Assembly (NCBI GenBank): GCA_010405405.1
Contig: MU004231.1
Span: 1,495,784 to 1,559,783 of the forward strand
Length of the DNA stretch: 64,000 nt
Source of the DNA: Microthyrium microscopicum
Taxonomy: Eukaryota
Direction: 5' to 3'
Shown here: positions 9,136 to 11,629 of the stretch, one piece after another
Numbering within the stretch: position 1 is the first letter of the stretch
Layout: each line of letters opens with the position of its first letter
Notes under the pieces: model-generated
Told to the model about the DNA's origin: nothing
Database searches by the model: none
The model's input: the letters and a program-made list of their open reading frames with translations, nothing else
Program-made: the position numbers and the translations under genes

Positions 9136-9321
9136 ATGTGTTACCAAAAATTCTTGCAGTGGAGATGCGCTCGCGATGTTTCTCATTATCAGAATCATCC
9201 TGTCGTGGCGTGCGAATATGCCAAGTCTTTCACCCCCAATCGCCCATGTCCAAATCCGATCCGATTCCCACTGGAAGTAAAAATGCCCGGTAAATGCAAC
9301 ATTTGCAAAACAAGATTGTAA
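9136..9321 (+). CDS. Small Cys/His-rich micropeptide 1 (61 aa, MCYQ family)
   Basis: MCYQKFLQWRCARDVSH...C...C...CNIC, with no signal peptide. Predicted 5'-UTR intron 9058-9111 (GTAAGC..CTGAT..CAG). Shares its N-terminus and Cys order with the two downstream ORFs. Confidence 0.7.
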   Translation: MCYQKFLQWRCARDVSHYQNHPVVACEYAKSFTPNRPCPNPIRFPLEVKMPGKCNICKTRL

Positions 9322-10690
9322 AGTCTGCGACTATTTCAGAACCCATGCACTGGTAAGCTGGGCCCATACATGGAAGTTGGTACGTGGGCTTCCAGACTAA
9401 TGCTCCTGTAGATGATTGGTACTTGTTTGGATGTTTTGGCAAACACATTACGAGAATGAAGAGCTGAAAACCAGAAGAAACATTGGCGGGTGAAGCGGTT
9501 AAGGTTTTGTGAAGTGTAATAGCTGCCAGTACTTTGAATTCATATCACGATCCTTGAAAGCACCGCTCAGTCAGACACCGTCTAGTATGTCTACCTAAGT
9601 ATTTCTGTGTTCATACGACTGACCCAAGCTCCCTTTGTGCAAACACCTTCCAACATGAAGCTGTTGCTTTACTCTCAGTATTCACCGTGATTTTGTCGGT
9701 TGGAAAACTTGAAGAGGAATCATAAACGCGCTCATTCCTTACTCTGATATTGTCATCGATCGAACTCTCAAATTTCAAAGAGAAATCTCATATCAAAGAA
9801 TTAAGCAATATCCCTAAAAGGTAAGATCTCATACATGAGACTGCCAAGGTTGATGACCAGATCAAAAACAGCTGCCTTGTTCCCAGTCTCTCAAGTAACC
9901 CCCGTCGATTGCATACGTGATGAAGACTTGACCAAAGAAGGCATGAATGCCCCCACCCCTTTCACTTCTTAGCTTTACGTTTGGTATGGATTGACTATTT
10001 TGGTTGTCTCTAGTCGATGGTGCTTTCCCGGGGCCATAACTCCAATGCGTTCGTTAGTCAGGCACTAACGAGTATGCAGACGAAAGCTTGATCGTAATAG
10101 CATCCGTTTGTGTAATCGCTCTGCGCTCTTGGTTCACTAACTTCTTCCCGCCGATTGTATTCGCTGCAGTGCCGTCGTTTGAGCATTGAGAAATGAGACC
10201 ATAAATAGAAATCCTTCTGCCAGTTTCATCTCATTATCAATCCAACCGTCCAAATCACAAGAAACATTCTTGAGCCAAAAACAAACCAGCAATCCTATAT
10301 CTCATGCACTGAACTGCCCGTAGAGCGTGCAGAGTCATATTTCTCATCACACTTCACAACTCTGTAAGCAATTGCCAATATAACTTCTCTCCATGGCCCT
10401 CATACATCTCTCTCACTTCTATCATTCACATCTCCCGAAACTTTTGTTAACCTGCTTCCAAAATATAGTACATATAAGAACCCTTCCATCTGATCAGCGA
10501 GACCGGGCTGTATCATAATACTCTTGTCAACTTCCAGCATACGATACAGCTTCTAAACAGCCAGCTTTAAGAAACCTCACAGGCCCTTCAGAGCGGTCGC
10601 CAACTTGCGAACCATTGCGTAAGCGTAAACGATAATATTTGTTGCGACATTCTGACATTCTACGCAGCATCAGTCCTCCATTCAATCAAG

Positions 10691-10831
10691 ATGTGCTACC
10701 AGGCTGTCATGGTCTATATCTGTTGTCGGGTTGAAAGCTCTTACGTCAACTGTGGATGTGGTCGACCTCCTATCAAATTCGAAACATCGATGGGAAATAC
10801 CTATTGCAATCGTCATCGTCCCCGACTGTGA
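10691..10831 (+). CDS. Small Cys/His-rich micropeptide 2 (46 aa, MCYQ family; not in ORF track)
   Basis: Translates as MCYQAVMVYICCRVESSYVNCGCGRPPIKFETSMGNTYCNRHRPRL*. Predicted 5'-UTR intron 10619-10667 (GTAAGC..CTGAC..CAG) and good start context (CAAGATG). Clearly paralogous to 11489-11629. Confidence 0.8.
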   Translation: MCYQAVMVYICCRVESSYVNCGCGRPPIKFETSMGNTYCNRHRPRL

Positions 10832-11488
10832 TGAGATTGGCGGATGAAGTGGTTGGGATTTTGTGAAGTGACATAGTTGATAGTTTTTGATTTCACAATG
10901 AAAGTTGCTGTATACAAAAAGTTTGCCGTGTCAGAGGTCGAAGCCTATTATGAAGTTCGCTGTAGCTGAAAGCATATGCTGACCTCTAGAAACATAAAGA
11001 AGTTTCCTATTCGCGGATTTTACTCAAAGCAAGTTACGTCTGCCAAGTTGCTGCTTTGTCATATCTGATCAGATTATATGCGTGTGCAGATAACCCGCAG
11101 ATCTAAGCTACTACATCATATCATATGTTCCTTTAACCGCAACTTGAAAACCTCCCAGAGGTCACAGGGGGCAGTCGGTGAATACTTGGGTAGCGCAATG
11201 CATGTCTTCATCAATCCTAGCTTTTATGTTCTCAGGTACTACTGTTAGCATGGTTCAGTATCTAATGTGTATAAAGCATTCTGAGCGCAATAGCTAAATC
11301 AACAAGAATTATAGCACATTTCCAACAATCGCCTTACGATACAACACCTGAGCATATTCATTGCTTTGCAACTCGTACAGACGGTCCAAGCCTTTGCGAA
11401 CTCATTACCACCCACGTAAGATCAAGCAAGAACTTCCTCTGATGGCGTGCTAACCTCGTCCATAGCATTAACCTTCCCTATCATCAAC

Positions 11489-11629
11489 ATGTGCTATCAA
11501 CCTATTATGATCTATACCTGTGGCTGTCAGATTCCCAGCCCTTACGTCAATTGTGGATGCGGTCGACCTCCAACCCAGTTTCCTGCACATATGGGTCGTC
11601 CGTGTAAAAACCATCGACCTCGAATGTGA
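11489..11629 (+). CDS. Small Cys/His-rich micropeptide 3 (46 aa, MCYQ family)
   Basis: Translates as MCYQPIMIYTCGCQIPSPYVNCGCGRPPTQFPAHMGRPCKNHRPRM*. Predicted 5'-UTR intron 11416-11465 (GTAAGA..GCTAAC..TAG), TATAAA at ~11270, start context CAACATG. Shares YVNCGCGRPP with peptide 2, with synonymous differences. Confidence 0.8.
   Translation: MCYQPIMIYTCGCQIPSPYVNCGCGRPPTQFPAHMGRPCKNHRPRM

Follow-up and report, generated by a model that had tools for sequence, protein, structure and literature searches.

Do three very short open reading frames (ORFs) on contig MU004231.1 of Microthyrium microscopicum encode genuine proteins, and what could such proteins do? They lie in a window of 64,000 nucleotides (nt), the whole stretch of DNA that was analysed. 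The original prediction, made from this sequence alone, read them as a family of small genes that annotation would overlook, encoding intracellular metal-binding micropeptides. All three ORFs are on the plus strand, with coding sequences (CDSs) at 9136-9321 (MCYQ-1), 10691-10831 (MCYQ-2) and 11489-11629 (MCYQ-3), and they encode 61, 46 and 46 amino acids (aa), respectively, in agreement with that prediction. MCYQ-1, which lies inside exon 9112-9352, has six Cys and two His residues and ends in -TRL. The MCYQ-2 frame has six Cys and one His and ends in -PRL, and the MCYQ-3 frame has six Cys and two His and ends in -PRM. We consider it very probable that the three loci are real, unannotated, paralogous microprotein-coding genes under purifying selection.

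All three peptides start with MCYQ and carry Cys at residues 2 and 11, as had been observed before. A six-frame scan of the window found no MCYQ beyond these ORFs. Further family copies were also not found, as a profile of the three peptides matched only the three among 2015 stop-to-stop frames of 20 aa or longer, with the next match at E 0.36. Peptides 2 and 3 showed 57% identity by tblastn and shared the stretches YVNCGCGRPP and HRPR, with the synonymous AAC/AAT, TGT/TGC and CCT/CCA differences that had been pointed out earlier. In a shuffle test, their similarity gave a z-score of 16.3, and none of 5000 shuffles attained the score. At the sequence level, these two peptides are clearly homologous. 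Peptide 1 gave a z-score of 5.6 against peptide 2 (0/5000 shuffles) and 4.3 against peptide 3 (2/5000). Once the MCYQ start was removed, the score was attained by 22 and 178 of the 5000 shuffles, respectively. Peptide 1 is thus a much more distant member. It is assigned to the family chiefly by its MCYQ start, Cys spacing and C-terminal pattern, by the shared gene architecture and by the similarity of its flanking DNA to that of unit 2 (we call each ORF together with its flanking gene parts a unit).

The comparison of ORFs 2 and 3 showed the signature of selection on the encoded peptide. Counting by the Nei-Gojobori method gave 15.75 synonymous differences over 29.2 sites and 24.25 non-synonymous differences over 105.8 sites, corresponding to synonymous (dS) and non-synonymous (dN) divergences of 0.96 and 0.27 and a dN/dS of 0.29. 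When the six frames of the same alignment were counted in this way, the ratio of non-synonymous to synonymous proportions (pN/pS) was 0.42 in the proposed frame (Fisher p 0.0012). Four of the other frames lay at 0.84-1.29, and the fifth, at 0.56 (p 0.04), contained 6 stops. Both indels of the alignment were 3 nt long, and the stop codons were aligned. Furthermore, the MCYQ start has been kept across the paralogues through synonymous changes (TGT/TGC, TAC/TAT, CAA/CAG). The low dN/dS, with the bias confined to the proposed frame, substantiates the purifying selection that had been suggested between copies 2 and 3. Two antisense ORFs on the minus strand, at 11468-11722 (84 aa) and 10682-10816 (44 aa), overlap MCYQ-3 and MCYQ-2 and resemble each other. 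Since the stop-free antisense frame, with a pN/pS of 0.84, had no synonymous bias, both probably just mirror the sense ORFs. Recent gene conversion was rejected as the source of the similarity between CDSs 2 and 3, given that their identity is just 70-79% and their differences are synonymous-biased.

RNA support was drawn from the contigs of one public run (X1), in which 43% of the words sampled from 8700-11800 were found. When these contigs were placed on 5000-16000, nine pieces fitted, all at least 99% alike. The bins without X1 cover (5000-6467, 9771-10137, 11606-11972 and 13074-13440) and six more pieces were not counted as evidence. Five intron-sized skips were observed in the fitted pieces, with GT..AG ends, or CT..AC for the minus-strand neighbour, which is the pattern expected of spliced mRNA. 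A contig of 2246 nt spanned 7299-9760, with introns at 7369-7419, 8164-8215, 9058-9111 and 9353-9411. The last two skips place ORF 1 wholly within exon 9112-9352, 24 nt past the exon start. A second contig fitted to 11415 and continued with nine letters identical to 11466-11474, indicating that a 50 nt intron before ORF 3 was removed. The original prediction had named a lack of transcripts or ribosome footprints, together with a dN/dS near 1, as grounds for giving up the ORFs as genes; the contigs showed spliced joints around ORF 1 and before ORF 3. The contig depth was 817 over unit 1 and 1-2 over units 2 and 3, values that cannot rank expression between the units.

The three units exhibited a common architecture. 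In unit 1, the upstream block and first non-coding exon (8748-9057, plus strand) are covered by the spliced contig and resemble 10041-10363 of unit 2 in two blastn blocks of 70% and 82%. Intron 1 (9058-9111, 54 nt, GT..AG) is documented by the joint 9057->9112 and ends 24 nt before the ATG. Intron 2 (9353-9411, 59 nt, GT..AG) lies in the 3' untranslated region (3'UTR), 31 nt past the stop; its joint was given as 9351->9411 ("cut +1") and was checked against the sequence. The last exon with the remaining 3'UTR (9412-9760) is covered by a contig piece to 9760 and includes a conserved block at 9482-9542. Unit 2, on the same strand, has a TATAAG box at 10473-10478, read from the sequence and situated 218 nt before its ATG, a spacing like that of unit 3. 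Its 5'UTR intron (10619-10667, 49 nt, GTAAGC..CTGAC..CAG) is predicted from the sequence only, at the same position as in units 1 and 3, and would end 23 nt before the ATG. Unit 3, also on the plus strand, has a TATAAA box at 11270-11275, read from the sequence, 219 nt before its ATG, and the X1-supported 5'UTR intron (11416-11465, 50 nt, GT..AG), which ends 23 nt before the ATG. The intron-to-ATG distances are therefore 24, 23 and 23 nt in units 1, 2 and 3, the unit 2 intron being the predicted one. In all three units exon 2 starts with CAT, and an A occupies position -3.

Ahead of the start codon, the exonic sequence contains no ATG over 218, 246 and 171 nt in units 1, 2 and 3, respectively, and the sole ATG of the unit 3 leader region sits within the removed intron. 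The MCYQ codon would thus be the first AUG of each mRNA, provided that transcription starts at these promoters. In the gene model that we favour, three separately promoted paralogous micro-genes of a filamentous ascomycete-type genome would each carry a TATA-like box ~220-230 nt upstream. A short first exon without coding sequence would be followed by an intron of ~50 nt, whose end lies 23-24 nt ahead of the first AUG, and then by an ORF of 46-61 codons. The window has a eukaryotic, fungal style, with introns of ~50-60 nt and GTAAGC-type donors. A ~60 nt 3'UTR block was shared by unit 1 (9482-9542) and unit 2 (10836-10895, plus strand) with 79% identity, and it was absent from unit 3. In the spliced layout it lies 101 nt past the stop of unit 1 and 4 nt past that of unit 2. 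This block may be a regulatory element.

Conservation along the DNA followed different patterns for the two pairs of units. Between units 2 and 3, the CDS was the only blastn match (10685-10770 and 11483-11571, 79%). Global alignment gave 102/146 identical positions for the CDS (70%, z 14.3), 138/249 for the 5' region (55%, z 5.2) and 89/196 for the 3' flank (45%, z -0.7), the last being at random level. Between units 1 and 2, the 5' blocks at 8790-9065 and 10100-10371 had 173/293 identical positions (z 12), and CDS 1 has diverged from unit 2 more than the unit 1 flanks have. Unit 2 contains two tandem promoter/first-exon-like modules within 10041-10690. The distal one (10041-10363, plus strand) is unit-1-like by alignment (z 12), has a GTAAGC donor at 10364 and could be an alternative first exon. 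The proximal one is unit-3-like (z 5.2), with its own TATAAG box and donor. This arrangement suggests that unit 2 has a mosaic origin or that its first exon has been duplicated, which would give alternative first exons.

For unit 1, a different transcript organization had to be considered, in which ORF 1 belongs to the upstream gene, either as a downstream ORF within a long 3'UTR that is spliced twice or as the second cistron of a bicistronic mRNA. This neighbour (7299-8281, plus strand) encodes a DUF1295 / ICMT-clan membrane protein, and its introns at 7369-7419 and 8164-8215 are RNA-supported. Its ORF of 267 aa starts at the ATG at 7426 and stops at 8281, whereas the unspliced frame would extend to 8355. 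One contig runs unbroken over 7299-9760 and both genes, as the shared-transcript explanation predicts, and a separate promoter of unit 1 could only be inferred because this contig joins ORF 1 and the DUF1295-like gene. However, a contig over two genes is no proof of one transcript. Units 2 and 3 share the ORF/intron layout without a DUF1295-like gene in front of them, and the unit 1 5' block is duplicated before unit 2. Moreover, the 218 nt that precede ORF 1 are ATG-free, while several ATG-started ORFs fall in 8372-8846. We therefore regard a shared transcript as rather unlikely and keep the separately promoted unit 1 as the preferred model.

The composition of the peptides is compatible with a metal-binding role. 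Each contains exactly six Cys and one or two His, with a Cys plus His share of 13-17%, a net charge of +4 to +7 and 3-8 Pro residues. Cys accounts for 10-13% of the residues, and 4-6 Tyr, Phe or Trp are present per peptide. The candidate ligands are C2, C11, H17, H21, C26, C38, C54 and C57 in peptide 1 (eight), C2, C11, C12, C21, C23, C39 and H42 in peptide 2 (seven), and C2, C11, C13, C22, C24, H34, C39 and H42 in peptide 3 (eight). All three peptides end with the pattern C-x2-(C/H)-(K/R)-x-R-(L/M)-stop, in which the position of Cys57 in peptide 1 is taken by His42 in peptides 2 and 3. The exchange of Cys and His at one position is typical of metal ligands. The N- and C-termini are conserved, and the middle is more variable. 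No signal peptide was recognized by eye in any of the three peptides.

On the basis of the C-terminal pattern, the Cys57/His42 exchange and the seven to eight candidate ligands, we propose a two-site metal clamp. One metal ion, Zn(II) or possibly Cu(I), would be held by C2 and C11 together with the C-terminal C-x2-(C/H) pair, so that both ends of the peptide are tied together, and the central Cys and His residues would form a second metal site. Such a peptide would form a small fold inside the cell that depends on metal or thiols and either buffers metal or docks on a partner. We hold metal binding itself to be a tentative proposal, somewhat more doubtful than probable, and give about an even chance to the whole explanation, separately promoted micro-genes plus the clamp.

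The original prediction had likened the peptides to metallothioneins or zinc ribbons. Metallothioneins contain ~20-30% Cys in C-x-C, C-C or C-x-x-C clusters and few or no aromatic residues. The MCYQ peptides resemble fungal metallothioneins such as Neurospora CuMT and yeast Cup1/Crs5 in their small size, their apparent lack of a signal peptide, several Cys residues including a C-x-C (CGC), and plausible Cu(I)/Zn(II) ligands. However, their Cys content is just 10-13%, they have 4-6 aromatic residues, a single CGC and a single CC or CGC cluster, and they matched no Pfam metallothionein profile at E 10. Membership was rejected on the low Cys content, the aromatic residues and the absent profile match. 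With zinc-ribbon and zinc-knuckle microproteins they share a C-terminal knuckle, C-x2-C in peptide 1 and C-x2-H in peptides 2 and 3, together with distant N-terminal Cys residues and the Cys/His exchange. A zinc ribbon has two CxxC-type knuckles on beta hairpins, as opposed to the single knuckle and N-terminal C-x8-C of the peptides, which had no PDB or Pfam match and whose structural models were too poor to judge hairpins. The single C-x2-(C/H) knuckle led us to reject this class as well. Metal binding is a plausible reading of the Cys/His pattern, and the defining features of metallothioneins and zinc ribbons were not found.

The C-terminal tripeptides raised another possibility, compatible with metal binding, in which the MCYQ products are peroxisomal microproteins. 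Their ends would act as type 1 peroxisomal targeting signals (PTS1) for Pex5 import into the matrix, where the thiols would have a redox or metal role. To our knowledge, no peroxisomal Cys-rich microprotein has been described. Each of the C-termini, -TRL, -PRL and -PRM, is preceded by a basic residue at -4, and the R at -2 is among the few invariant columns. In the available part of PMC13343957, the -PRL end of Histoplasma catalase CatP sends mNeonGreen to peroxisomal puncta, and the excerpts of PMC7214503 and PMC9542071 report that PRM> works as a PTS1 in plants. Upstream basic residues raise targeting, according to the same portion of PMC9542071. However, just one of the three ends (-PRL) matches the PTS1 consensus quoted in PMC13343957, [A/S/C/P]-[K/R/H]-L. 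In the excerpted lists of PMC13343957 and PMC9542071, -PRM matches the plant list only, and -TRL is in neither the fungal nor the plant list. PMC3487989 does not mention the three tripeptides. In Histoplasma, import through -PRL was only partial, and some cytosolic mNeonGreen signal was left (PMC13343957, same excerpt). In addition, a metal ligand at -5 may impede access to the C-terminal end. Compared with CatP as a cargo with a weak tripeptide, peptide 2 shares -PRL, and peptides 1 and 3 end in -TRL and -PRM. We judge peroxisomal import unlikely to quite unlikely. Its fuller form, a hitherto unseen family of peroxisome-targeted six-Cys microproteins whose N-terminal Cys pair and C-terminal C-x2-(C/H) pair fold the peptide round a metal or redox-active thiol cluster and whose -(T/P)-R-(L/M) end delivers them via Pex5, seems quite unlikely. 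If it were true, filamentous ascomycetes would gain a small thiol/metal buffer inside an H2O2-producing organelle.

We searched for relatives of the peptides in several collections. None of the three peptides matched any Pfam family at E <=10, metallothionein profiles included, and neither the family profile nor peptide 1 had a match among PDB sequences at E <=10. A word-index search of 15 billion proteins in 5.8 billion clusters found none for peptide 3; with the three-peptide alignment it gave 1 candidate at near lengths and 19 at longer lengths, none of which scored. An exhaustive phmmer search of 1.84 billion representatives with peptide 3 returned two matches. Both were rejected as homologues, being repeat proteins in which 11 and 3 Cys-rich stretches sum to the score. 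One of them, P0001 (1850 aa), is unrelated and contains ~11 tandem copies of a ~38-residue Cys/His-rich unit; its C-terminus is presumably a MYND-type zinc finger. Metagenome contigs gave 24 pattern matches, of which four loci passed tblastn. Two translated loci carry stops around the match, and the four had identical match statistics, so these were treated as chance. In prokaryote genomes, none of three pattern matches was confirmed. The ESM Atlas clusters closest to the two peptides compared were hypothetical Ascomycota proteins of 49-73 aa without Pfam domains (scores 0.91 and 0.90), which serve as leads only. The literature searched for the MCYQ-type motif yielded unrelated papers only and nothing relevant on small ORFs in fungi.

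These searches agree with the original prediction, in that no characterised family could be named from Pfam, PDB or phmmer. They returned no self match either, indicating that the peptides are missing from the protein collections and are therefore unannotated. Together with the splicing evidence and the frame-specific selection, this bears out the proposal of a paralogous family of small genes overlooked by annotation. The MCYQ family is a new orphan family of the general kind "small Cys-rich fungal proteins".

An orphan family may also be a set of transcribed loci that do not function as proteins, either spliced non-coding RNAs or young ORFs whose likeness stems from duplication, not from selection on the peptide. 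The lack of homologues in every collection searched and of a predicted fold would fit such loci, as would the divergence of CDS 1 beyond that of its flanks relative to unit 2 and the contig depth of just 1-2 over units 2 and 3. However, the bias towards synonymous differences is confined to one frame, and units 2 and 3 are most alike in the CDS. In addition, the stops are aligned with indels of 3 nt, the leaders are ATG-free, and no Rfam family was found over 7000-13500. We consider non-functional ORFs improbable and retain the reading of three protein-coding micro-genes.

Precursor or effector peptides were also considered. Fungal precursors of ribosomally synthesized and post-translationally modified peptides (RiPPs), such as those of the MSDIN/amatoxin type and the ustiloxin- and phomopsin-type dikaritins, resemble the MCYQ ORFs in being very short, multi-copy and fixed in their N-terminal start motif. 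Dikaritin precursors are marked by a signal peptide and by a repeated core with Kex2 sites on its flanks, and their genes lie next to one for DUF3328/UstYa. In contrast, the MCYQ peptides have no signal peptide by eye, no Kex2 repeats (KR-flanked repeats were absent from all three) and no Pro-flanked hypervariable core. Twin Cx9C proteins of the Cox17 family are likewise small, Cys-rich and without a presequence. However, the spacing in the peptides is Cx8C (C2, C11) and occurs once, and no helix-loop-helix was predicted; the single Cx8C led us to reject this membership. The explanation as RiPP-type precursors, as disulfide-rich peptides with antimicrobial or killer activity that leave the cell without a signal peptide, or as Mia40-oxidised intermembrane-space proteins is very unlikely, since the small size, basic charge, constant six Cys, tandem diverging family and conserved termini around a more variable middle on its side are opposed by the lack, by eye, of a signal peptide, a dibasic-flanked repeated core and a CaaX end, by a spacing that is neither twin Cx9C nor Cx3C, and by the absence of DUF3328/UstYa, prolyl oligopeptidase, tyrosinase and P450 from the 27 of the window's 59 stop-to-stop ORFs of 120 aa or more that were scanned with Pfam. 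The alternative of peptide precursors offered in the original prediction therefore found no backing. Two narrower ideas were also rejected. Oxygen sensing by a Cys N-degron through the MC- start is unlikely, as N-terminal cysteine oxidases are found among fungi only in chytrids, according to an excerpt of PMC10092093. The peptides are not prenylated CaaX substrates for the neighbouring ICMT-clan (DUF1295) protein, given that their last Cys is at -5 or -8 and not at -4.

Several observations weigh against our reading of metal-binding micro-genes. The RNA evidence comes from one run, X1, whose type was guessed to be RNA, and the coding case rests on contigs and sequence. The dN/dS of 0.29 is based on 45 codons, in a protein-guided alignment of two paralogues within one genome. 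Peptide 1 is missed by a profile built from the other two peptides (E 1.8), and CDS 1 is hardly alignable to the other CDSs as DNA (z ~2). ORF 1 shares its contig with the DUF1295-like gene. The searches of Pfam, PDB and the large protein collections yielded no homologue, and neither did those of metagenome contigs and prokaryote genomes. AlphaFold2 yielded no confident fold for peptides 1 and 3, with mean predicted local distance difference test (pLDDT) scores of 49.6 and 44.2, respectively. As for metal binding, peptide 2 has just seven candidate ligands, and the aromatic residues and modest Cys content are ill-suited to metal-storage peptides.

The scanned long ORFs around the micro-genes encode TLC/Lag1, DUF1295, BEACH, S8 subtilase (20 kb away), SRP54, Rrp15, arrestin and ricin-B lectin domains. 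Enzymes typical of fungal peptide-natural-product clusters were not found among these 27 ORFs, and by its domain content the surroundings are a housekeeping neighbourhood. Downstream, a contig of 3424 nt covers a minus-strand gene at 13642-16000 whose CT..AC intron lies at 15383-15435; the long exons of this gene, at 13846-15429 (527 aa) and 15614-16213, had no Pfam match. Further on, a large BEACH-domain gene (Arm_4, Laminin_G_3, PH_BEACH, Beach, WD40) extends on the minus strand over two long ORFs at 21268-29254 and is an ordinary conserved gene.

Fungal annotation routinely discards ORFs below ~60-100 codons. Three such ORFs with splice evidence, a shared architecture and frame-specific selection, absent from a 15-billion-protein collection, are a clean case on which to test the discovery of microproteins in filamentous fungi. 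If neither the metal-clamp nor the PTS1 idea is true, the MCYQ peptides would be an ordinary lineage-restricted orphan family. If either is true, they would represent a new small-protein player in metal, redox or peroxisome biology.

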